This document shows, one piece after another, positions 2,583 to 57,926 of a stretch of DNA of 64,000 bases. Position 1 is the first letter of the stretch. Every line of letters starts with the position of its first letter. The stretch is from a virus (taxonomy: Duplodnaviria > Caudoviricetes), in the IMG/VR virus record IMGVR_UViG_3300032050_000002, one strand, 5' to 3'. Both the position numbers and the translations under genes were made by a program. The notes beneath the pieces are model-generated. The model was not told the DNA's origin. It did not search any database and saw nothing but the letters and a program-made list of their open reading frames with translations.

Positions 2583-4433
2583 ATGGGAAAAATTATAGGT
2601 ATTGACCTAGGAACAACAAATTCATGCGTTGCCGTAATGGAAGGTAACGAACCAGTCGTGATTACGAATAACGAAGGAAAAAGAACAACACCATCTATTG
2701 TTGGTTTTGTTAGTGAGGGTGAAAGAAAAATTGGAGACCCTGCAAAAAGACAATCGGTAACCAATCCGAATAAAACAATTTACTCAATTAAAAGATTTAT
2801 GGGCACTAATTTCACAGAGTCTAAAAGTGAGATAGAAAGAGTCCCTTATAAAGTAGTAAAAGGAGATAATAATACTCCAAGAGTTGAAATTGACGATAGA
2901 AAATATTCTCCACAGGAAATATCAGCAATGATTTTACAGAAAATGAAAAAAACCGCTGAAGATTATCTTGGAACTGAGGTTACTGAGGCGGTTATTACGG
3001 TACCGGCTTACTTTAACGATGCTCAAAGACAGGCAACAAAGGAGGCGGGTGAAATTGCAGGACTAACCGTAAAAAGAATTATCAACGAACCTACCGCAGC
3101 CGCCTTAGCCTACGGATTAGATAAGAAAGGTAAAGACCAAAAAATTGTTGTTTTTGATTGTGGTGGAGGAACTCACGATGTATCCGTATTAGAATTAGGT
3201 GATGGAGTGTTTGAAGTACTATCAACGGATGGAGATACTCATTTAGGCGGAGATGATTTTGACCAAGCGATTATTGATTGGTTAGTATCGGAATTTAAAA
3301 CCGAAAATGGGATTGATTTAACTAAAGATTCTATGGCGTTACAAAGATTGAAAGAATCCGCAGAAAAAGCGAAAGTAGAACTATCCTCAACAAGTTCTAC
3401 CGAGATTAACTTACCTTATATTATGCCGGTTGACGGTATCCCAAAACATTTGGTTAGAACGTTAACAAAATCTAAATTCGAACAATTAGTAGATAAATTA
3501 GTCGAAAGAACTATTGAACCTTGTAAATCGGCATTAAAAAATGCGGGATTAAAAACTGAAGAAATTGATGAAATTATTTTAGTTGGTGGAACAACAAGAA
3601 TTCCCGTAATTCAAGACGCAGTTAAAAAATTCTTCGGTAAAGAACCGTCAAAAGGAGTTAATCCTGATGAAGTAGTTGCGTTAGGAGCCGCTATCCAAGG
3701 TGGGGTTTTAGCTGGTGATGTTAAAGATGTTTTATTATTAGACGTTACCCCACTATCATTAGGTATTGAAACAATGGGTGGAGTTTTTACAAAACTTATA
3801 GAATCCAATACAACGATTCCAACTAAACGTTCGCAAGTATTCTCAACTGCCTCGGATAATCAACCAAGTGTTGAGATTCATGTATTACAGGGCGAAAGAG
3901 CGATGGCGAGAGATAATAAAACTATTGGTAAATTTTTCTTAGACGGAATTCCTCCGGCTATGAGAGGTACACCTCAAATTGAGGTTACATTTGATATTGA
4001 TGCAAATGGTATTATTAATGTATCCGCTTTAGATAAAGCAACTAACAAACAACAATCAATCAGAATTGAATCATCTTCAGGGTTGTCAAAAGAAGAAATT
4101 GAAAGGATGAAGAGGGATGCTGAATTAAATGCCGAAAGTGATAAAAAGGCCAAAGAAGATGTGGAGATTTTAAATATAGCGGATAGTACCGTGTTCAATA
4201 TCAAAAAATCTATGACAGATTTAGGTGAAAAAATAACTGAAGAACAAAAAAGTGAGATTAATTCTATAATTGATAAATTAACAGAGTCAATTTCTAAAAA
4301 AGAAATAGATACCGTAACAACTTTAGTTAATGAATTAAATGAAAAGTTTCATAAGATAAGTGAGGAACTTTATAAAACAGAAGAACCTTCAGATATTAAT
4401 CATAACGATGTAGAATTTGAAGAAGTTAAGTAA
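2583..4433 (+). CDS. dnaK: Chaperone DnaK (Hsp70)
   Basis: [33 protein letters not shown]-like, [18 protein letters not shown]; Bacteroidota-style C-terminal DVEFEEVK. Confidence 0.98.
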
Positions 4434-29776: not shown

Positions 29777-29974
29777 CATAAATAATTGACATATTGAAAA
29801 ACTCAATTATATTTATGATTGTTGACTTCGTGGGTTTTAAGTGGAAGTCACCCAATAAAAGATAGATACAGAAATGGGACTATCAACAAATTACCCTTTG
29901 ACACCTACCTAAACGGTAGGTTTTTTTATTTAAAAAAATTTGGTAAATTCAAAAAAAGTTCGTATCTTTGTATT

Positions 29975-31039
29975 ATGTTAGAGACTCTAAATAGATACTT
30001 TGAAGACGGACTTCTGTATAAACAGACTCACCCTACTCTTCCTTTAACTATATGGAATTACACCGAGAAAGTTCAATACGAGAACTTATGGGATGAAATA
30101 ACCATACAGACCAGAGGTTTGGTAACTGATGATAAGGGAAATATAGTTGCTAGACCTTTTAAAAAGTTTTTCAATTTAGAGGAAAAAAAACATACCGCAA
30201 CCCCTTACTTTGAAGTTTTCGATAAAATGGATGGTTCATTGGGGATATTGTTTAATTATGAGGGAGAATGGATAATGGCAACCAGAGGTTCATTCACCTC
30301 AGACCAAGCGGTTAAAGGATTTGAGTTACTTCAAAAATACGACTATAAAAGATTGGTTAAAGGTTTTACCTACCTATTTGAGATAATATACCCTGAGAAC
30401 AGAATAGTTGTTAATTATGGTTATGAGGATTTAATATTGTTATCTGTAATAGATAATAAAGATGGTTATGAATTAAAGATATTTGATGATTCTATCCATA
30501 TAGAAGGTATAAGATTAAGAAACCTATATAACAATTTAGGGTTTAAATTGGTTAAAAAATACGATGGTATAAAAGACTATAACACCTTAAAAAATATGGT
30601 TAAAGACAATGAAGAAGGTTTTGTGGTTAGGTTTTCAAATGGGGAAAGGGTCAAAATAAAAGGTGAAGAATATATAAGACTTCACAAAATAATGACCAAT
30701 GTATCAACCACCGGTATATGGGAAATATTAAGTACCGGTGGAAACTTTGAGGAAATACTTAAAGATGTTCCTGATGAGTTCTACAATAAAATAAAGGACT
30801 ACGAAAAAGAGTTGAGGTATCAATACTTTTCAATATCAGAATACTGCGGTAAATTACATGACGGATTTAGATATGGTAAATACGGTGATAAAGAAGAACC
30901 CACCAAAAAGGAATACGCTGAATTTGTTATGAAAAACGTAAAACCCGAATTCAGACCTATAATGTTTTTTATGTGGGATAAAAAGAATTATGACCAGATA
31001 ATATGGAAACTCATAAGACCCGAATTTAAAAAACTATAA
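29975..31039 (+). CDS. T4 Rnl1-like RNA ligase
   Basis: RGLVTD, RPFKKFFN, DKMDGSLG (KxDG), TYLFEII, EEGFVV, VKIK; start reassigned to the ATG after the -7 element. Confidence 0.9.
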   Translation: MLETLNRYFEDGLLYKQTHPTLPLTIWNYTEKVQYENLWDEITIQTRGLVTDDKGNIVARPFKKFFNLEEKKHTATPYFEVFDKMDGSLGILFNYEGEWIMATRGSFTSDQAVKGFELLQKYDYKRLVKGFTYLFEIIYPENRIVVNYGYEDLILLSVIDNKDGYELKIFDDSIHIEGIRLRNLYNNLGFKLVKKYDGIKDYNTLKNMVKDNEEGFVVRFSNGERVKIKGEEYIRLHKIMTNVSTTGIWEILSTGGNFEEILKDVPDEFYNKIKDYEKELRYQYFSISEYCGKLHDGFRYGKYGDKEEPTKKEYAEFVMKNVKPEFRPIMFFMWDKKNYDQIIWKLIRPEFKKL

Positions 31040-32249: not shown

Positions 32250-32588
32250 ATGGAACAACAATTTTATACTATATTAATAACATTAATAACGGTATTAAGT
32301 TCTACTGCGGCATGGAAATTCTACGAAAGAAGACTTAGTTTAAAGGCTAAAAAAGACGAGGACAGTACAATGGATGGAAGACTTTTCAGAGATGATTTGA
32401 GAGATAGAGTTGTTAAATTAGAGACTTTACTAACAGAATCTTCAAAAGAAAAAGATAAAATGAGAGAAAATATCGTTTCATTAACATCACAAGTTTCAAG
32501 ACTAGAAGTTGAAGTTGAGTTTCTAAGAAAAGATAATGAATCTTTAAGGTCTGAAAATAATTTATTAAGGGCAACATATAAAATATGA
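32250..32588 (+). CDS. N-terminal TM + coiled-coil protein
   Basis: Hydrophobic N-terminus then heptad repeats. Confidence 0.6.
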   Translation: MEQQFYTILITLITVLSSTAAWKFYERRLSLKAKKDEDSTMDGRLFRDDLRDRVVKLETLLTESSKEKDKMRENIVSLTSQVSRLEVEVEFLRKDNESLRSENNLLRATYKI

Positions 32589-33100
32589 AAAAAATATTAA
32601 TAGAAGAATTAATCAAACCAACATCTACGTCAAATGTTAATGTCGGTAAAATCACTTCAATTGAAAAATCAATATTTGATGACATTGATTCATCAGCGAG
32701 TGCCTCCAAAGTTAAAGTTAATTTATTAGGTTCAACTTTATCAGGAATGAGTGTATCGTTAGGATTTACACCTATATCAAATGATAAAACAGAAATAGGA
32801 GCATTAGTTGATACTTTCGCAAATACAATTTCAAGTAAAGGATATAAAAAAGATAATTTACCAAAAGGATATGTTTGGAAAAAAGGTCAAGACAATAGTG
32901 TAAGTTTTGTGATTTATAATAATACAACTGGAGTGAATATTGACCTTAGTAAGATTACCACAGGAGCGTCATCAGAGTTAAATCCTGATGCGGCGGCGTT
33001 AAAAATTATGACCGCTGCGGCGTCTAAAGCAATGCCGGGGGTGATGTCAGAATCAATTAATTATGAGATAATAAGAATTAAAAATTTAATGAGTTTATGA
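32585..33100 (+). CDS. Hypothetical protein
   Basis: ORF track; ends SESINYEIIRIKNLM. Confidence 0.6.
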   Translation: MKKILIEELIKPTSTSNVNVGKITSIEKSIFDDIDSSASASKVKVNLLGSTLSGMSVSLGFTPISNDKTEIGALVDTFANTISSKGYKKDNLPKGYVWKKGQDNSVSFVIYNNTTGVNIDLSKITTGASSELNPDAAALKIMTAAASKAMPGVMSESINYEIIRIKNLMSL

Positions 33101-33666
33101 AATTTAAACATCCTGTAGATACAATGTCTATTGAAAATTTATTACAAAATAAAATAAAATACAATTCACTAAAAGGGACAAAAGTAGTGATGCCTTATAA
33201 AGGTACAATCAAAGATTTTGATTCTAATACTTGTAACGGAAAATTAGAAATTAAACATAAAATAGACGGAAAAAAATATACTTCTGTTTTGTGTGGAGTT
33301 GAATCTGTATCAAAAAGTAGTTCAGAATTATCTGAGGGTGAAGAAATTGCGGAAATGTCAGGAAACAATCTTATTTGGATGTTAGTTGACCAAGCGGGAG
33401 ATACTCAAAATATTTATGATATTTTTAAAGACAAAGATGATAAAAATAGTGAGGAAAATAAATCAAAGGAAAATAAATCAAAAGAAAACAAATCTGTAAA
33501 ACAATCAAAAGATTATGGTTTTAAAGCCGACCCAATAACAAAAAGATTAATTGATTTAACTACAACACCTTTAAAATTAGTAAATAAATTCTTAGGTGAC
33601 AATAAAAACAAAGATGAAGATAAATTGACTGAAGAAATAAATAGAATTAAACAATTACTAAAATAA
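33097..33666 (+). CDS. Degenerate M23-like (duplicated hybrid motif) protein
   Basis: HPVD...VVMPYKGTI...CNGKLEIKH...YTSVLCGV...EGEEIA fits the fold pattern but lacks the HxxxD/HxH metal ligands. Confidence 0.45.
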   Translation: MKFKHPVDTMSIENLLQNKIKYNSLKGTKVVMPYKGTIKDFDSNTCNGKLEIKHKIDGKKYTSVLCGVESVSKSSSELSEGEEIAEMSGNNLIWMLVDQAGDTQNIYDIFKDKDDKNSEENKSKENKSKENKSVKQSKDYGFKADPITKRLIDLTTTPLKLVNKFLGDNKNKDEDKLTEEINRIKQLLK

Positions 33667-40402: not shown

Positions 40403-42439
40403 TTATTCTCCCTTTTTCTTTTTAGTCTTCTTTTGTTTTCTTTCTTTTATCTTAATGTCCTTTTCTTCGACATATAATTCATACTCCACATTATCCTCAA
40501 TGTTTCCCTTTAACACTTCCTCAGAAATGTAATCTTCAATCTTATCTTGGATTGCTCTCTTTAGTGGTCTCGCTCCGTACATCTCATCAAAACCAACCTC
40601 AGAAATTAAATTGATAATTGATGGGTCGTATACAAATTTATATTTTAATGTTTCTAATCTATTAAATAATTTATCCAATTCTATTTTAACAATCTTATCA
40701 ATATCTTCTTTAACTAATTTGTTAAATATGATAATCTCATCAACTCTATTTAAAAACTCAGGAGCGAAAAACTTCTGCAATTCTTTTTTAAGAATATCTC
40801 GTTTGTGTTCTTCTTCAACATAGGTGGATGATTTTGATTTAAATCCAACACCAGAACCAAACTCTTGTAATTTCTTAACACCTAAATTTGATGTCATAAT
40901 GATTACACAATTCTTAAAATTAATTTTTCTACCTAATCCATCAGTAATATGACCATCATCTAAAACTTGTAAAAGGGTTGAGAATATATCTTTGTTTGCT
41001 TTCTCAATTTCATCAAATAAGATAACTGAGTATGGTTTATTTTTAACTTGTTCTGTTAATTGACCGCCTTCATCATAACCAACGTAACCCGGAGGTGCCC
41101 CAATTAATCTTGATATTGTGTGTTTCTCTTGGAACTCAGACATATCAACTCTGATTAAATTATCTTCACTTCCAAATATTTCTTTAGCCAATTGTTTTGC
41201 TAAATATGTTTTACCAACACCTGTCGAACCTAAGAAGATAAATGAACCGATTGGTTTATTTGGGTCTTTAATTCCTAATCTATTTCTTCTAATTGATTTA
41301 ACAATTTTATTTACCGCTTCATTTTGACCAACAACTTTACTATTAATAACTTCAGCAAGATTTGTTAAAGTTTTGGTTTCATCAGAGTTTATTTTAGATA
41401 AAGGTATCTTTGTCATATTAGATACTACTTCATATACTAAATCCTCAGTTACTTCTTTCTTTTTAATTTGTAATTCAGTTTCAAATTTCTTCTTTTCTGA
41501 TTCTAACTTATCAAGAATCTTTCTTTCTTTATCTCTTAGTGATGCCGCCAATTCATAATTTTGTTGTTTAACCACATCAAGTTTTTCTTTCTTAACATCC
41601 AAAGCATCTTGTTTTAGTTTTTCAATAACTTCTGGCATTTTAATCTCAACCTGACTTCTTGCCCCAACCTCATCAATAATATCAAACGCTTTATCAGGAA
41701 ATTCTCTATCCGTAATATATCTTTCCGCCATATCAACACATAATTTTAGAATCTCACTTGAATAGATTACGTTATGATAACTTTCATATTTTTCTTTAGC
41801 ATTTTCTAATATCTGTAACGTCTCTTGTTTTGTCGCCGCGTCAACAATAACTTTTTGGAATCTTCTTTCTAAAGCACCATCTTTTTCAAAGTTTTTACGA
41901 TACTCATCTAAGGTCGTAGCACCAATACATTGTATTTCTCCTCTCGCTAATGCGGGTTTAAATATGTTAGACGCATCAAGAGAACCTGAAGAATTACCCG
42001 CTCCAACGATTGTATGAATTTCATCAATAAAAACAATAATGTTAGGGTTAGATTGAAGTTCTTCAATTATAACTTTCATCCTTTCTTCAAATTGTCCTCG
42101 GTATTTTGTTCCCGCAACAACAGAAGTCATATCAAGTAATACAATCTTTTTATCCATTAAGTTTCTTGGACATTCCCCATTGAATATCTTTATAGCCAAT
42201 CCTTCAACAATTGCGGTTTTACCACAACCAGGTTCACCAATAATAATAGGGTTATTTTTCTTTCTTCTTGAAAGAATTTGAGCAATCCTTGAGATTTCTC
42301 TATCTCTACCGATTACAGGGTCTAACTTACCTTCCTCGGCAAGTTTAATTAAATTTCTACTGAAGTTATCAAGAACCGGAGTATTTGATTGGTCTTCCGA
42401 TTTATTCTTTTTTCCTCCACTGTCTGCTGATTCAATCAT
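40403..42439 (-). CDS. clpC: ClpC-type AAA+ unfoldase lacking the N-terminal repeat domain
   Basis: [17 protein letters not shown]-type middle domain ([12 protein letters not shown]), [15 protein letters not shown], ClpP-docking-like VGF loop. Confidence 0.9.
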
Positions 42440-43113: not shown

Positions 43114-43356
43114 ATGGCAATATTAAAAGAAGAAATTAATGGAACAAAAATTATTAATGAAATTCAATCATCTAATATTAGAAAAACCGAATACGATACG
43201 GAAAATAAAACATTATTAGTTGAGTTTAATAATGGTATGAAATACGAGTATCAAGAAGTTCCTCATCAGTTATACACCCAATTCAGAATGTCAGAATCTC
43301 AGGGTAAATTCTTTAGCTCAAAAATTGCAAAAACATTTAAATACAAGAAAATATGA
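43114..43356 (+). CDS. KTSC domain protein
   Basis: SSNIRKTEYD...LLVEFNNG..YEY..VP..LY..F..SESQGKFF. Confidence 0.9.
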   Translation: MAILKEEINGTKIINEIQSSNIRKTEYDTENKTLLVEFNNGMKYEYQEVPHQLYTQFRMSESQGKFFSSKIAKTFKYKKI

Positions 43357-43387
43357 TAAATCCTTATTTAAGAATATTTATTTAATT

Positions 43388-45664
43388 ATGGATAATCTTA
43401 AAAGCATTTTATCAAGTTTTAAATTAAAAAATGAACTAAACTCTAAAGTTTGGGAAAAATCCAAAAAAGAAGGATATACATTAAACCCAAAAGTTAGAAC
43501 TAACCTATTAGAAATATCTTACGATTTTATTGAGTCTTTAAAAGTTGATGTTGTTATCAGTGATATAATAATGACAGGTTCTTTGGCTAATTATAATTGG
43601 TCGAACTATTCAGATATTGATTTACATATTATTGCGGATTTCGGACAATTTTCAAAAAACGTGAGGTCTTTATACGAAGAATTATTTAGACTAAAAAAGA
43701 CGGTTTACGGAGCGAAACACGATATTAAAATATTTGGTTATGACGTTGAATTGTACGTTGAGGACGAATCAATAGCTAGAGATGTTAAAGGAGCGGGAAG
43801 GTATTCAATTTTGCATAATGAATGGACCGTAAAACCACCTAAAGAATCGTTCAAAATAAGAGAAAAAGATATTAAAGAAAAGGCTAAAAAATGGATGAAA
43901 ATAATTGATGGTGTTGAAGAAACTATTCAAGATGAGGATATTGAGTCAGCTAAAAAATTATTAAAAAAATATACTGAAAAAATTAGAAAATATAGAGAAT
44001 GTGGATTAGAAAAAGGTGGGGAATATTCTGATGAAAATTTAGTATTTAAAATTTTAAGAAGAAACGGTTATTTAGACAGGTTAAAAGACATGAAAAATAA
44101 ATTAATAGATAAAAAATTATCTATTAAAGAGTCGATAACTACAATTGGAGACGAATTTAAAGTTGATTTAGAAAACGGTCCCGCTAATCACGGAAAAAGG
44201 GCGTTTGGTAATTGGCAATCAGACAATGCTTGGGATGTTTTTGCTCCCGCCGGCACCGTAGTTAATTCATATACCGATGGAGTGGTATCTAAAGTCTACG
44301 ACAATGGTAAAAGGTCTGGTAAAGTTTTTGGAACTCAGATTAATGTAAAAGGTGAAAATGGATATCCTGATATTTTTTACACACATCTTACTAATGTTAA
44401 ACTATCTTCGGGAGATAAAGTTAATGTCGGGGATTATATTGGTGAAATTATACAATGGTGTGTGGATGAAAATTGTTCTAAAAAAATGGATGGAACTCAT
44501 GTTCATATTGGTTTACCGAGAGGAAATCATTTAAAAGATTTAATCAATGATAAGGTATTTAAAGGTGGTGATGGTAAAAATATGAAATATGAAAAACACG
44601 ATAGTTTTTTATCATCTTTATTTAGTTTATTTGGTCTTAGTGGTAAATCAAAAGATAAGAATTTTGAAAAAATTGTTGATGATGTGGGAGACTCTAAATT
44701 TTTAAAATCTATAATTGATATTATAGATTCTGATAAAATTTTAAAGAATATAAAAACTCCAAAATCAAAAATACCTTATGATAAAGATGTTGAGATTATT
44801 CAAACCGCACTACAATTTTTAGGATTTTCATTACCTAAATGGGGAGTAGACGGTTTATTTGGTCCTGAAACACAAAGAGCGGTAGAATCTTTTGAAGAAA
44901 AAAATTCATTAAAAGTGGATGGAGAATTAAATAGCAATGATTTAAAAGTTTTATTAAGTAATCTATCTGAAAAGGGATTTACTGATGAAAAACTAAGCGG
45001 TATTCAGAGAGATTCTGATTTCGTAGTTAATGGTCAAATCGATTTAAGTAAAGGAAAATTTAATGGAGAACAATTAAAAAATATAAATCTAATTATTAAT
45101 GAGCTTAATAATAAAGGTATTACAAATCCATATACTCAAGCAGGTATTTTATCCGTTATAGGTAAAGAATCTAATTTTAATACATATAAAGAAATTGGGT
45201 ATAGTAATACCTCAAATTCAAGAATACGAAATATTTTTGGTAGAAGAGTGTCTAAATATTCTGATTCTGAATTATCAAGATTAAAACAAAATGATGAAGA
45301 TTTTTTTGATGCGATGTATGGGATGAATTCAGGTATGAAATTAGGTAACACAATGCCTGGTGACGGTTGGAGATATGTTGGTAGGGGTATGAATGGACTT
45401 ACGGGTAGAGCAAATTATAGAAAATATGGTAATATGATAGGAGTTGATTTAGAATCTAACCCCGAAAAAGTAGAAGACCCTGAAATTGCTGCAAAGGTGG
45501 CGGTTGCGTTTTTTACAAAAAATAAACCACCTCAAAGTATTCCTAATTTTGAGAACAAACAAGACGCAGTTAACTACTTTGCGGATATTAATGCCGGGGG
45601 TCGTTCATCATTCTCAAGAGAGGCTGCCGATAAATACTCTACAAGTTTTGATGTTATTGCTTAA
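43388..45664 (+). CDS. Fusion: Pol-beta-like nucleotidyltransferase + M23-like peptidase + PG-binding + GH19-like lysozyme
   Basis: TGSLANYNWSNYSDIDLH and DVELYV; WDVFAPAGTVV..., FYTHL, THVHIG; IIQTALQFLG...DGLFGPETQRAV; GKESNF, GDGWRYVGRGMNGLTGRANY. Confidence 0.85.
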   Translation: MDNLKSILSSFKLKNELNSKVWEKSKKEGYTLNPKVRTNLLEISYDFIESLKVDVVISDIIMTGSLANYNWSNYSDIDLHIIADFGQFSKNVRSLYEELFRLKKTVYGAKHDIKIFGYDVELYVEDESIARDVKGAGRYSILHNEWTVKPPKESFKIREKDIKEKAKKWMKIIDGVEETIQDEDIESAKKLLKKYTEKIRKYRECGLEKGGEYSDENLVFKILRRNGYLDRLKDMKNKLIDKKLSIKESITTIGDEFKVDLENGPANHGKRAFGNWQSDNAWDVFAPAGTVVNSYTDGVVSKVYDNGKRSGKVFGTQINVKGENGYPDIFYTHLTNVKLSSGDKVNVGDYIGEIIQWCVDENCSKKMDGTHVHIGLPRGNHLKDLINDKVFKGGDGKNMKYEKHDSFLSSLFSLFGLSGKSKDKNFEKIVDDVGDSKFLKSIIDIIDSDKILKNIKTPKSKIPYDKDVEIIQTALQFLGFSLPKWGVDGLFGPETQRAVESFEEKNSLKVDGELNSNDLKVLLSNLSEKGFTDEKLSGIQRDSDFVVNGQIDLSKGKFNGEQLKNINLIINELNNKGITNPYTQAGILSVIGKESNFNTYKEIGYSNTSNSRIRNIFGRRVSKYSDSELSRLKQNDEDFFDAMYGMNSGMKLGNTMPGDGWRYVGRGMNGLTGRANYRKYGNMIGVDLESNPEKVEDPEIAAKVAVAFFTKNKPPQSIPNFENKQDAVNYFADINAGGRSSFSREAADKYSTSFDVIA

Positions 45665-45730: not shown

Positions 45731-46984
45731 ATGGGAAATTTAAAACCAATTGGAAGTGAAAAACTTCAAGGTATGGATAAAATTAATAGAATTCTTGAAA
45801 TTGCAAGATATAAGGAAAATAAACCAAACCCTATTAATGAGGATAAATCTATTGAATATCGTAAAACTTTAAGTGATAATAACAATTATCAAATCGTTAA
45901 AGAAAAAAACGGATACGTTATCACTAAAGCAATTAATGAATCTGAGTTTGAATATATTGAACCTATGAAAAATAGAAAATATTATTCTTCGTATTCACAA
46001 GCAATGAAAAGATTAAATTTAATTGCTAAAGAAGTTAATACTAATGTAGGTTACGATAAAAATGTTTCTCTTTTTTACGAAAGTGATAATAATGAAACAA
46101 AATTTTACTTAAAAGTAAATGCTAATGAGCAAGCACCTCCTGCACCAGCACCTGCACCCGCTCCAGCACCTGCACCCGCTCCTGAACCTATGCCTGAACC
46201 ATCACCTGAAGAAACTCCAACTGATGAATTACCTGAACCTGAAATGGATACAGATACTACTCCTGAAGATGATACAGATAAAGAAGAGGTTGTTACATTT
46301 AAAACAATACAAAAATTAACAGGTAAATTAGCACAAAAAATAAGAACGTTAGCTTCTGATGAAGAAAATCCTATGTCTTCAAAAGACATAAAATATGTTA
46401 TAAATTCAATTTTATCCGCACTTGATTTAAATTCTTTAGAACCTGAAGATAAAGAGCAAATTATGGCAAAATTTGAAGGTGAGGAAGATATGGATAATGT
46501 TGGAGGTGATGAGGAATCATCAGTTCCTGATGAGGAAATGCCGGAACCTGAAGAAGTGTCTGCAGAAGCTCCACCAGCTCCTGAAGGAGAAATGAGTGAA
46601 GAATTTGATGAAGACTATACTATGAGAGGTGCTAGAAAAAGAAGAAAAAAAATTCATCCTGATTTAACTGATGAAGAATCTGATGCTATGTCAGAAATGG
46701 TAGAAAGTTTATTTTCTGAATCAAAAGTTGATAGTATTTTAAAAAGTTATTTCAAATACGATAAAAAAGAAAAAGAAGTTATTAAAGAACAAAAAGAAAA
46801 CAAAAAAGAAATAAAAAATAAAATAAAAACTATTTCTGAAAATGTTGTTCAAGAAGTTGCAACTTTAAAATTTATCGAAAAAAATCCAAAAGCAAAATTA
46901 GTTGGTAAAACTTTAAATAAAACAATAGTATTTGAACAAAATAATAAAAGATATTTAATTACTCCAAAGGGACAAGTTAAGTGA
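45731..46984 (+). CDS. Hypothetical (probable head-associated) protein with Pro/Ala linker
   Basis: ORF track; (PA)n run and acidic linkers; several (I/L)xE sites. Confidence 0.65.
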   Translation: MGNLKPIGSEKLQGMDKINRILEIARYKENKPNPINEDKSIEYRKTLSDNNNYQIVKEKNGYVITKAINESEFEYIEPMKNRKYYSSYSQAMKRLNLIAKEVNTNVGYDKNVSLFYESDNNETKFYLKVNANEQAPPAPAPAPAPAPAPAPEPMPEPSPEETPTDELPEPEMDTDTTPEDDTDKEEVVTFKTIQKLTGKLAQKIRTLASDEENPMSSKDIKYVINSILSALDLNSLEPEDKEQIMAKFEGEEDMDNVGGDEESSVPDEEMPEPEEVSAEAPPAPEGEMSEEFDEDYTMRGARKRRKKIHPDLTDEESDAMSEMVESLFSESKVDSILKSYFKYDKKEKEVIKEQKENKKEIKNKIKTISENVVQEVATLKFIEKNPKAKLVGKTLNKTIVFEQNNKRYLITPKGQVK

Positions 46985-47391
46985 ATTATTTAATTTACAT
47001 AAATGAATTAGGTCCTAACTATAAAGGAGATAATATATATGAATTTATTTTTTCTGATACGTTAGAAAATATTTGGGGAGACTCTTGGGAGTCAAAACCC
47101 GCCAATGATTATCCACAACCGCCTGAATTAAATTTTGTAAAAAAAGTTGGGATATTAAAAAATAATTTAGTATCTTTGTCTGTGATTCAAAAATCGGATT
47201 ACTTCTCAATGATTGACGCTATGGATGACGTAATTGCATTAGGATGGGAAAACGAATCTGATAGTATAAATTTTGACATTGATAAAAGATTAGTTTTTAG
47301 GTTTGGAGAAACAGAAGAAACTGTTAAAAATAAACTATACGAAAGAGATTTAATTCTCGAATTTGAAAAAAACGTTGTATATGAAAACTAA
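46981..47391 (+). CDS. Hypothetical protein
   Basis: ORF track. Confidence 0.65.
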   Translation: MNYLIYINELGPNYKGDNIYEFIFSDTLENIWGDSWESKPANDYPQPPELNFVKKVGILKNNLVSLSVIQKSDYFSMIDAMDDVIALGWENESDSINFDIDKRLVFRFGETEETVKNKLYERDLILEFEKNVVYEN

Positions 47392-48292
47392 ACAAAAAAT
47401 GTTAAAATTAATGGAGTATGGTTTAAAACCAAAAACTTTATCAGATTTGTCAGAGTCTCAAATTAATTCATTATATTTGCGATTAATGGAGACAAAGAAA
47501 GAAAATAAAGAAGAAACAAAAACTGAAGTTACTAATTTAACTTTTGACCCTGGAAACAATGGTGACCAACAAAAATTAGCTCAAAAAGGTATACACGTTG
47601 ACCCCACAACTAAAAAAATTACAATGACAACATCGTCAACAGGTGCAATTACTGAAAAGGAGTTGGATGAGTCCTTTGAATCCAAAAAAAAACAAAAACA
47701 TTTCTACTCAAAATGTGGAGATGGAAAAACAAAAGAACAAAAAAAATGGTGTAAAATGGCAAAAGAATTTTCAGACAAAACAAATTTTAAAAAGTTACCA
47801 GAAAAAAAGAAAGAAACTAAAGAAAGTAGTAACTATCAAAATATTGTAAAAAATACCGCGGCACAACTATATAAAAATAATCTTGGTAAAACACTTTCAC
47901 CTCAATTTGAGAGTAAATTAGAGAAGCAAATAACAAAATTATTGGAGGACAACATGAATCCAAAAATGTCTAAAAGAGATTTTATAAAATTGATTTTTGA
48001 AATGGATTACCCGGGAACTAAAGAAAAAGAACCGGACACAAAACCTGTTACAGAACCAACACCTGATATTGATTATGACCCATTTAATGACCCAGACCCG
48101 GATGCCCCTGAAGCAAGAAGTCCTTTAGAGGCTCCACCAAAACCTGATACAAAACCAAAACCTGTTACAGAACCAACACCTGATATTGATTATGACCCAT
48201 TTAATGACCCAGACCCGGATGCCCCTGAAGCAAGAGGAGGAGGATTTTCAATGTTTATGAAACAAGTAATGAATAAAGGAATGTTAAAATAA
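47381..48292 (+). CDS. Hypothetical protein with duplicated 26-aa Pro/Asp-rich segment
   Basis: KPVTEPTPDIDYDPFNDPDPDAPEAR twice; start reassigned to MKTKQK. Confidence 0.65.
   Translation: MKTKQKMLKLMEYGLKPKTLSDLSESQINSLYLRLMETKKENKEETKTEVTNLTFDPGNNGDQQKLAQKGIHVDPTTKKITMTTSSTGAITEKELDESFESKKKQKHFYSKCGDGKTKEQKKWCKMAKEFSDKTNFKKLPEKKKETKESSNYQNIVKNTAAQLYKNNLGKTLSPQFESKLEKQITKLLEDNMNPKMSKRDFIKLIFEMDYPGTKEKEPDTKPVTEPTPDIDYDPFNDPDPDAPEARSPLEAPPKPDTKPKPVTEPTPDIDYDPFNDPDPDAPEARGGGFSMFMKQVMNKGMLK
48039..48235 (+). repeat. 80-bp identical direct repeat (48039-48118 and 48156-48235)
   Basis: Direct comparison. Confidence 0.9.
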
Positions 48293-57203: not shown

Positions 57204-57926
57204 ATGGAATTAAAGATTTTAAAACCCGGACAATCAGGTAAGGGAATCCTTATCGAAGAAGATGCGGGCTATATTTCCCCAACGGATAGTAGAAATATGG
57301 ACATTATTAAAGAGTCCAAAAATATGTTAGACCACTCAAAACCATTTGAGTTTTATGCCGTATTACAGAAATACAATACACCAAATAGAAACGGTAGAGT
57401 TTACCCTGAAAATATCTTAAAAAGAGAGTCTCAGAATTATAAAAAAATGATTGAGAAGGGAACTTCTCTTTCTGAATTAAATCACCCTGAATCATCTTTA
57501 ATTGATTTGGATAGAGTATCTCACATTATTACAGATATTTGGTGGGACGGACCTATTCTAATGGGTAAACTTAAATTATTAACTTCACCAGGTTTTCATG
57601 AAAGAGGAATTGTATCAACAAAAGGAGATATGGCGGCAAACTATTTAAGACAGGGAGTGACTTTAGGTATATCATCAAGAGGAGTTGGCTCACTTAAAAA
57701 AGTTGGTGAACAAAATGAAGTTCAAGATGATTTTGAATTAATTTGTTTTGACTTAGTGTCTTCTCCATCTACACCTGGTGCGTATCTATTCTTAAATCCT
57801 GACGAAAGAACCAAATTTGAAGAGAACATTGAAGAAGAAAAAAAGATGAGAGATACAAATTCTTTGGGAGTTAACGATAAAAGTATTGACTTAATGAAAA
57901 AATTAAACGATTATTTGGGATATTAA
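57204..57926 (+). CDS. Prohead core protease (T4 gp21-like)
   Basis: NRNGRVYP, SELNHP, GISSRGVGS, FDLVSSPSTPGA. Confidence 0.95.
   Translation: MELKILKPGQSGKGILIEEDAGYISPTDSRNMDIIKESKNMLDHSKPFEFYAVLQKYNTPNRNGRVYPENILKRESQNYKKMIEKGTSLSELNHPESSLIDLDRVSHIITDIWWDGPILMGKLKLLTSPGFHERGIVSTKGDMAANYLRQGVTLGISSRGVGSLKKVGEQNEVQDDFELICFDLVSSPSTPGAYLFLNPDERTKFEENIEEEKKMRDTNSLGVNDKSIDLMKKLNDYLGY

Follow-up and report, generated by a model that had tools for sequence, protein, structure and literature searches.

Polyvalent proteins combine lysozyme, DD-peptidase, zeta-kinase, GNAT, 2H and nucleotidyltransferase (NTase) domains, and in the 2017 survey of these proteins Pol-beta NTases occurred only in those of conjugative elements, with processing by a built-in zincin peptidase (PMC5512222; Iyer, Burroughs, Anand, de Souza, Aravind 2017). 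In phage T4, gp21 cuts core and internal proteins within the prohead, and the internal proteins and Alt are ejected after being cut (PMC5694885). The head-internal gp28 of cyanopodophage A4 carries lytic transglycosylase and M23 domains (PMC12002296; PDB 9K2V). The gene described here lies in a 64,000-nucleotide stretch of DNA (the window) from IMG/VR virus record IMGVR_UViG_3300032050_000002 and joins, in one open reading frame (ORF), a Pol-beta-superfamily NTase to M23, peptidoglycan-binding (PGB) and GH19-type domains. The reading we favour, at a little under even probability, is that it encodes a late, head-packaged 'polyvalent' protein that would be split by the prohead protease and injected with the DNA. 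No description of this NTase family, of its pairing with a KTSC-domain gene or of an NTase-lysin fusion was found in the literature.

The fusion is a single + strand ORF running from an ATG at 43388 to a stop at 45664. The first-pass annotation placed the ORF correctly but gave its product as 759 aa, a figure that counts the stop; the 759 codons encode 758 amino acids. An in-frame TTG at 43325 would give a longer alternative start overlapping the KTSC gene, but the N-termini of homologues fit the ATG and not the TTG, and ATG 43388 is therefore taken as the start. The parts of the gene are as follows.

43388..45664, + strand: whole fusion ORF, 758 aa plus stop.
43388..44131, + strand: Pol-beta-superfamily NTase module, residues 1-248 (NTase core and four-helix bundle), from phrog_36119, an AlphaFold2 (AF2) model and invariant residues.
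44123..44131, + strand: I246-K-E248 at the NTase/cargo junction, candidate T4 gp21-type cleavage site ([LI]-x-E, then S), from conservation and low predicted local distance difference test (pLDDT) scores.
44171..44542, + strand: divergent M23 metallopeptidase domain, approximately residues 262-385, from Pfam and invariant residues.
44783..44947, + strand: PG_binding_1 peptidoglycan-binding domain, residues 466-520, from Pfam.
45092..45661, + strand: predicted GH19-type (SPN1S-endolysin-like) muramidase domain, residues 569-758, from a sequence match to PDB 4OK7.

The presence of NTase, M23-like, PG-binding and GH19-like domains in one ORF, as first proposed from the letters alone, is upheld by Pfam, PHROGs, the 4OK7 match and the AF2 model, and the linker L-S-I-K-E-S between the NTase and the wall domains is indeed found, at residues 243-249. 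Peptidase_M23 matches residues 280-376 (E 9e-9; 35.8 bits against a Pfam cut-off of 28.7). In the homologue alignment D283, H333, H371 and H373 are invariant, and H268 and D279 nearly so, with Asp279 replacing the first His of the canonical HxxxD that is found in the swapped variants P0028, P0049 and P0051. By profile and HxH motif, residues ~262-385 belong to the M23 family and are predicted to be catalytic. PG_binding_1 matches residues 466-520 (E 1.7e-11; 44.5 bits against a Pfam cut-off of 23). Glyco_hydro_19 matches residues 660-714 slightly under its Pfam cut-off (E 1e-4; 22.6 against 25.5 bits), and a PDB sequence search aligns residues 569-711 with the GH19-type SPN1S endolysin 4OK7 (E 5.5e-15) and also finds 9EOI, 8P8E, 9MS6 and 7R6S. 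The GH19 Glu pair has a catalytic role, and both Glu of the GHES..QEN motif are retained in the fusion as GKES..YKEI. Similarity and the two Glu together point to residues 569-758 as a predicted GH19-type (SPN1S-like) muramidase domain. The PHROGs family phrog_181, annotated 'endolysin', spans residues 443-713.

One identical protein and more than 400 homologous fusions, with 45-82% identity, are present in independent JGI, ENA, NCBI and Logan assemblies, from which we conclude that the fusion is real. That it is instead an artefact of assembly or gene calling, with two genes that are really separate, has a negligible probability: the frame is continuous with no stop, and an assembly artefact is rejected by these independent homologues together with 28 fused loci in IMG/VR.

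The fusion is also modular. That the NTase bears variable C-terminal cargo in relatives, as the first-pass annotation suggested checking, is borne out, with the point of exchange directly after the Glu of an [LI]xE motif. Architectures include NTase-M23, NTase-M23-PGB, NTase-M23-PGB-GH19, NTase-M23-M23-PGB-Phage_lysozyme2, NTase-PGB-M23-GH19, NTase-PGB followed by an unknown region, and NTase-Amidase_2-PGB-VanY, and the NTase module may be N-terminal, C-terminal or internal in proteins of up to 999 aa. Among 90 fused cluster representatives the wall-directed cargo comprises PGB (21), M23 (12), Phage_lysozyme2 (4), Glucosaminidase (3), VanY (2) and Amidase_2 (1), while the non-lytic cargo comprises GNAT (5), NUDIX, 2H phosphoesterase and MORN repeats; in one structure-atlas cluster the NTase is joined to a zeta-toxin-type domain. 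At the same locus the NTase stands alone in 52 of 80 IMG/VR relatives and is fused in the other 28, and the fused state has changed at least 16 times by fusion or fission across a tree of the NTase module. No separately encoded lysin follows the stand-alone NTases, the next gene always being a homologue of g417, the gene after the fusion. A homologous 80-aa KTSC gene lies directly upstream of the NTase gene in 69 of 73 related loci. Given the stand-alone majority, the repeated changes of state and the steady presence of KTSC, what stays constant at this head-block locus is the KTSC-NTase pair, to which a lysin may or may not be added as cargo.

The case for processing rests on the junction between the NTase and its cargo. 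The NTase module ends in D-K-x-[LYF]-[ST]-[LI]-x-E, a motif found in 119 of the 120 fusions listed, in which P3 is always L or I and P1 always Glu, while P2 varies among K, N, Q, S, E and R. Differing cargo begins right after the junction Glu (I-K-E248 here), be it the canonical M23 domain of the three swapped variants named above or a PG-binding domain placed first, as in P0025, P0106 and L040; in P0118 the junction site is duplicated in tandem. The fusion contains eight [LI]xE sites, only one of which, I246-K-E248, is kept in 30 of 30 aligned homologues. The whole-protein model has no confident domain packing (predicted TM-score, pTM, 0.35) and residues 245-252 have pLDDT below 50, so that IKE248 is predicted to lie in an exposed linker. 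The chains of stand-alone NTases stop 0-2 residues short of the E248 point or a few residues beyond it, so that a cut after E248 would recreate their C-terminus.

In raw counts the motif is much commoner in fused forms, with the junction motif in 26 of 28 fused against 19 of 52 stand-alone NTases in IMG/VR, and in 145 of 172 against 22 of 64 in a wider set. Two further tests do not involve the C-terminus of the module itself. Of the 27 fused proteins without the strict register, 20 have a new [LI]xE within ~14 aa downstream, compared with 10.5 +/- 2.3 in composition-preserving shuffles, none of which reached 20 in 2000 trials. Where the cargo is N-terminal, 17 of 28 proteins have an [LI]xE ending between -9 and +2 of the point where the module begins, whereas the remaining sequence of these proteins would predict 4.9. 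Taken at the level of sequence, [LI]xE marks both borders of the NTase module.

Proteases of the gp21 family prefer [LI]-x-Glu, and a T4-like specificity of this kind in the present lineage fits what is seen elsewhere in the head block. The first 60 aa of the capsid protein (61909-62088) hold five [LI]xE, including V-I-K-E and L-I-N-E|A just before the conserved mature start, compared with four in the remaining 576 aa; this [LI]xE-rich N-terminus resembles the propeptide of T4 gp23. An acidic 501-aa neighbour of the capsid protein holds four in its first 48 aa (59308-59451). The sites in both proteins are consistent with propeptide or scaffold processing of the gp21 type. With a Peptidase_S77 protease encoded in the window and an accessible, conserved [LI]-x-Glu at the junction, the fusion is a candidate substrate for a T4 gp21-type protease, and cleavage at the junction by the prohead protease appears about as probable as its absence.

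A third protein of the block, encoded by g417 (45731-46984), has a conserved N-terminus of ~30 aa, M-G-x-L-K-P-I-G-S-E-K-L-x-G-M-D-K-I-x-R-I-[ML]-E-I-A-R-Y, with an [LI]xE at residue 23, and an acidic, Pro/Ala-rich body of variable length (400-584 aa; homologues at L029, L033, L040, L044, L060, L061, L075 and L083). By analogy it looks like an internal head protein with a T4-style targeting propeptide.

Our results lead to a model in which the fusion would be made late as a precursor and built into the prohead, where a gp21-type Peptidase_S77 with [LI]-x-Glu specificity would cut after Glu248 in the flexible linker. The cut would yield an NTase with a C-terminus like that of the stand-alone enzymes and a 510-aa murein hydrolase of three domains. 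When the next cell is infected, both pieces would exit the capsid together with the DNA, the hydrolase opening the peptidoglycan and the NTase, closest to adenylyltransferases of the DrrA/GlnE/ANT type, nucleotidylating a host target in the manner of T4 Alt, an injected ADP-ribosyltransferase. Late expression, packaging, cleavage, ejection and the NTase substrate are the parts of this model that we infer. A broader form of the proposal, which we regard as tentative and on balance doubtful, is that the NTase family is the hub of capsid-packed 'polyproteins' in T4-like jumbo phages, from which the prohead protease would free exchangeable effectors at [LI]xE on both sides, the NTase itself being an injected, DrrA-like AMPylase that would act on a host protein in the first seconds of infection as the counterpart of Alt.

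Several observations weigh against the packaged-precursor model. The P3 hydrophobic residue is present throughout the module family and many stand-alone NTases keep the Glu; as 19 of 52 retain the whole motif, part of its conservation belongs to the module itself. Nine phylogenetically independent pairs compared for fused state and [LI]xE include few that are informative, with ~2.5 changing in the same direction, 0.5 in the opposite direction and 6 unchanged. The sequences behind the 20 of 27 and 17 of 28 counts are related, so these enrichments overstate independence and the effective samples are smaller. Some members of the same lineage, a minority, carry S-[LI]-E at this point and so depart from the T4 rule. 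No T4-style capsid-targeting peptide is evident at the N-terminus of the fusion, which is a well-modelled helix. Stand-alone NTase homologues of S-CRM01 and of Maribacter phages lie among early or middle genes and not among virion genes, and no fused form was found in the cultured-phage collection. Finally, wall digestion in contractile-tailed phages is usually carried out by a baseplate lysozyme and not by head contents. On a separate point, the idea that the junction register (S-h-x-E or S-h-E) tracks protease type was rejected, as both registers are found in the same ClpC/KTSC/TerL/Portal_T4 lineage.

The NTase module is covered from residue 12 to 245 by phrog_36119 (E 1.7e-37), a PHROGs family of 247 positions and unannotated function. 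The Pfam match to NTP_transf_2 (PF01909) is weak in the fusion (residues 49-105; E 0.005; 17.7 bits against a cut-off of 21) and at or over cut-off in relatives. G64-S65, D76-x-D78 (D76-I-D78) and E121 show no variation across alignments of 52, 90 and 145 sequences, so that the GS...DxD pattern noted at first reading stands while the third acidic residue is Glu and not the Asp proposed. An AF2 model of residues 1-250, built on 52 relatives, has a pLDDT of 93 and consists of a Pol-beta NTase core followed by a four-helix bundle. Foldseek matches of this model to CdnE, AAD(9), ANT(4'), FAM46, cGAS and 2RFF are all weak and at superfamily level. The top match, the CD-NTase 6WT9, has E 2e-4 with a TM-score of 0.2 and a root-mean-square deviation of 15 Å. 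VIA matches on the core include FAM46B (Z 7.5) and 2RFF (Z 7.0), and a wide VIA search returns mostly generic helical bundles; the fold searches assign the module to no specific NTase family. By motif and core fold the module is a member of the Pol-beta nucleotidyltransferase superfamily, and its invariant catalytic residues argue for an enzyme rather than a spacer.

As to what this enzyme might modify, the solved protein closest in sequence is Legionella DrrA/SidM, through its AMPylation domain (profile E of only 1e-3), with which the module shares the G-x11-D-x-D spacing and a Y-S-D-[LI]-D stretch; SidM_N matches one relative under its Pfam cut-off (E 1.5e-5; 24.9 against 27 bits). As a lead, this DrrA-like sequence and the adenylyltransferase-type fold matches favour a hydroxyl on a protein or small molecule as nucleotide acceptor, in preference to RNA tailing. 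The likeness to the DrrA/SidM-GlnE-ANT adenylyltransferases lies in the spacing, the shared stretch, the DrrA profile match and the ANT(4'), AAD(9), CD-NTase and FAM46 fold matches, whereas the scores are at or under family cut-offs, TM-scores are 0.2-0.3 and the helical lobe is unlike. RlaP is a family of RNA-ligase-associated Pol-beta NTases (PMC7824862), and no RlaP-type family was among the matches at E <= 0.01 in Pfam scans of the fusion and its relatives; an Rnl1-like ligase is encoded at 29819-31039, 12 kb from the fusion gene and not adjacent to it. A library-wide search with the NTase module alone gives 3962 clusters, and in a structure-atlas search the family was found to be restricted to viruses, its nearest clusters all being 100% viral.

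The window has 29% G+C and comes from a large freshwater T4-like phage, probably a T4-like jumbo phage of ~300 kb with a host in the Bacteroidota. It has no nucleotide similarity to known phages, and it encodes TerL, a T4-type portal, a Peptidase_S77 prohead protease and a gp23-type capsid protein whose nearest cultured relatives include 'far-T4' phages of Flavobacterium, Microcystis and Rhodothermus. The genes run in the order ClpC-like ATPase (- strand), double-UVR protein, KTSC, fusion, four unknown and mostly acidic proteins, TerL, portal, protease and capsid, and the same order surrounds homologues on 298-kb, 244-kb and further contigs. Three features of this block bear on the fusion.

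43114..43356, + strand: KTSC-domain gene, 80 aa, upstream neighbour of the fusion (Pfam KTSC, E 5e-18).
43374..43382, + strand: late-promoter-like motif ATATTTATT, 5 nt before the ATG, from ATATTTATW enrichment.
57204..57926, + strand: T4 gp21-type prohead protease (Peptidase_S77), the proposed processing enzyme (Pfam PF03420, E 8.6e-23; phrog_207).

The protease gene lies ~10 kb from the NTase gene in all five long IMG/VR relatives examined, three of which are complete at 297-321 kb, two of these with terminal repeats. KTSC, put forward in the first-pass annotation as a possible partner of the NTase, has been described both as RNA-binding (PMC7824862) and as DNA-binding (PMC9503650), and neither KTSC nor any other Pfam domain was found in the genes beside the stand-alone NTases of Maribacter phage Molly and S-CRM01. 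The TATTTAT noted upstream in the first-pass annotation is present at 43375, although the fuller unit is the 9-mer ATATTTATW, of which the window has 31 copies where 13 +/- 3.4 would be expected, a 2.4-fold enrichment over shuffles. Copies on the coding strand precede the fusion, g417, TerL, g450, g238, the protease, g329 and g501 by a few to ~35 nt, and in the head region at 43-64 kb nearly all copies are on the coding strand directly upstream of start codons; further sites include 45692, 51759, 52225, 55701, 57182, 58217, 59226, 59275 and 63912. ATATTTATW is a candidate late promoter element, akin to, yet distinct from, the late promoter of T4, TATAAATA.

Other features of this phage group lie outside the argument. 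Four relatives encode small stand-alone M23 proteins (~230 aa) 8-13 kb from the NTase gene, on the side opposite the protease (G001:C1:280907-281224, G002:C1:297367-297657, G004:C1:8568-8864 and G005:C1:120616-120888), and the ORFs of the window at the matching place (32585-33666) have no Pfam match. In one relative an intein interrupts the T4-type portal gene (L088 10085-13210; 1041 aa, matching Portal_T4 and Intein_splicing), and in the 298-kb relative a gene for ribosomal protein S21 lies between the portal and protease genes (L001 20734-20928, - strand). The phage is unusually rich in signalling and chaperone genes, with a PAS histidine kinase that is open at the window start, a stand-alone receiver, a 226-aa protein without Pfam match and a full-length DnaK/HSP70 at 1-2219 and 2583-4433, the ClpC-like ATPase at 40403-42439 and, in relatives, HSP20. 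The C-terminal third of g309 (47363-48292) holds two near-identical Pro/Asp-rich units of ~30 aa (K-P-V-T-E-P-T-P-D-I-D-Y-D-P-F-N-D-P-D-P-D-A-P-E-A-R).

Every complete relative also has, well away from the head block, an Amidase_2 ORF of its own (~201-206 aa). In G001 and G003 the 201-aa Amidase_2 lies between a protein with 3-4 transmembrane helices and small proteins with an N-terminal transmembrane helix, and G001 has both this lysis cassette and an NTase-PGB fusion. The candidate cassette comprises a small protein with one transmembrane helix (G001 only), the protein with 3-4 transmembrane helices, the 201-aa Amidase_2, a 202-aa protein and one or two small proteins with an N-terminal transmembrane helix, at ~163.7-166.6 kb of G001:C1 (L091 7693-10601) and ~64.7-67.7 kb of G003:C1 (L092 6762-9672). 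G002, where the NTase stands alone, has a separate PGB-GH19 gene near dnaK, and the T4-type lysozyme PF00959 has no match in the five relatives. The fusion itself, in all loci examined, has KTSC and head genes as neighbours and is never beside membrane proteins. With a lysis cassette built around an amidase already present in relatives, the main endolysin is probably a protein other than the fusion.

It may nevertheless be an auxiliary or second endolysin. In that case the product would be an unprocessed, late cytoplasmic bifunctional protein in which the endolysin is fused to a late NTase, the hydrolase would reach the wall at holin firing, and [LI]xE would be the C-terminal end of the NTase. 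Endolysins normally build up in the cytoplasm, so the two halves are compatible, and for the same reason the 'incongruity' of a cytoplasmic enzyme joined to wall hydrolases, from which the first-pass annotation had argued, is a weaker argument than stated. Lysins with PGB and catalytic domains are typical of Gram-negative jumbo phages, in keeping with the phrog_181 match, and the retention of the motif by stand-alone NTases, the shortage of informative pairs on the tree (6 of 9 unchanged) and the non-structural setting of stand-alone homologues elsewhere all sit comfortably with a protein that is never cut. Against this, holin-like and spanin-like membrane proteins already flank an amidase in relatives, G002 has a separate PGB-GH19, and the gene is always in the head block, away from membrane proteins. 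An uncut endolysin also leaves unexplained why [LI]xE reappears downstream, or precedes the module in forms with N-terminal cargo, and why the cargo includes non-lytic domains (GNAT, NUDIX, 2H and zeta-toxin-like). We consider an uncut endolysin unlikely, though the likeliest of the alternatives.

Two other readings retain the uncut chain and assign the NTase a role tied to the lysin. The protein might be a virion-associated lysin on the tail, baseplate or neck, with the NTase as an attachment or enzymatic module. The late gene context, the pairing of M23 with a glycosidase, typical of double-catalytic virion-associated hydrolases, and the presence of Phage_lysozyme2 ('phage tail lysozyme') among the cargo types are all in keeping with this, but the gene sits with terminase, portal, protease and capsid genes and not with tail or baseplate genes, the invariant catalytic residues speak against a purely structural role, where the NTase stands alone at this locus there is no cargo for it to attach, and the junction motif statistics are left unexplained; we judge a tail location quite improbable. 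Alternatively the NTase might regulate the lysin, by nucleotide sensing or by auto-nucleotidylation that holds the hydrolase inactive until release and so sets the timing of lysis or entry. The recurrence of the NTase with many wall hydrolases (M23, VanY, Amidase_2 and lysozymes) and the protein-modifying activity of its nearest solved relative, DrrA, would suit such a role, whereas the model predicts no packing of NTase against hydrolase, the NTase stands alone in most same-locus relatives with no lysin nearby, and non-lytic enzymes are also among the cargo. Regulation of this kind is very unlikely.

The packaged-precursor model, by comparison, has close though imperfect parallels in each of the systems introduced above. 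With the polyvalent proteins the fusion shares unrelated activities in one chain and a late or virion gene context, a vocabulary of lysozyme, DD-peptidase/VanY, zeta-toxin-like kinase, GNAT, 2H and Pol-beta NTase domains, and a proposed delivery with DNA, followed by separation into individual units. With 2-4 domains the present proteins are small, and the cis zincin-like peptidase of polyvalent proteins is replaced by a candidate T4-type [LI]xE site for a separate prohead protease; no zincin-like MPTase domain was found in any Pfam scan of the fusion or its relatives. The parallel with T4 IPI-III and Alt lies in the T4-type portal, capsid protein and Peptidase_S77 and in the proposed head-packed, [LI]xE-cut, injected host-modifying enzyme. 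In T4, however, a short N-terminal targeting peptide is removed, while the site here is between two folded halves; and Alt is an ADP-ribosyltransferase where this protein has an NTase. T7 gp16 and A4 gp28 are head-internal ejection proteins with murein hydrolase domains. The parallel lies in a glycosidase and an M23 peptidase, as in A4 gp28, within a single protein that is packed in the capsid, ejected and believed to breach the wall on entry (PMC12002296), and the M23 domain of the fusion has a weak sequence match to 9K2V_E. Those are proteins of podophages with an ejectosome, lacking the NTase and the protease-site junction, whereas the present phage is a contractile-tailed T4-like jumbo phage. 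The C-terminal half of the fusion shares the PGB and GH19-type layout of Gram-negative jumbo-phage endolysins and of the SPN1S endolysin (4OK7), to which it adds M23 and the 248-aa NTase, and its gene is in a head block and not in a lysis cassette.

The strict pairing of KTSC with the NTase in the head block would stay unexplained even if cleavage were disproved. The M23, PG-binding and GH19 half, with its many natural swaps, may represent a source of ready-made modular lysins for walls of the Bacteroidota type. If the packaged-precursor model is true, it would provide a simple and general way for large T4-like phages to load several enzymes as one precursor that the head protease then separates, and it would extend the 'polyvalent protein' idea to a processing route and to a phage NTase hub missed by the 2017 survey. 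A virus-restricted NTase family of ~4000 clusters would then act at the entry step and would be a promising place to look for a new host-takeover or anti-defence activity.

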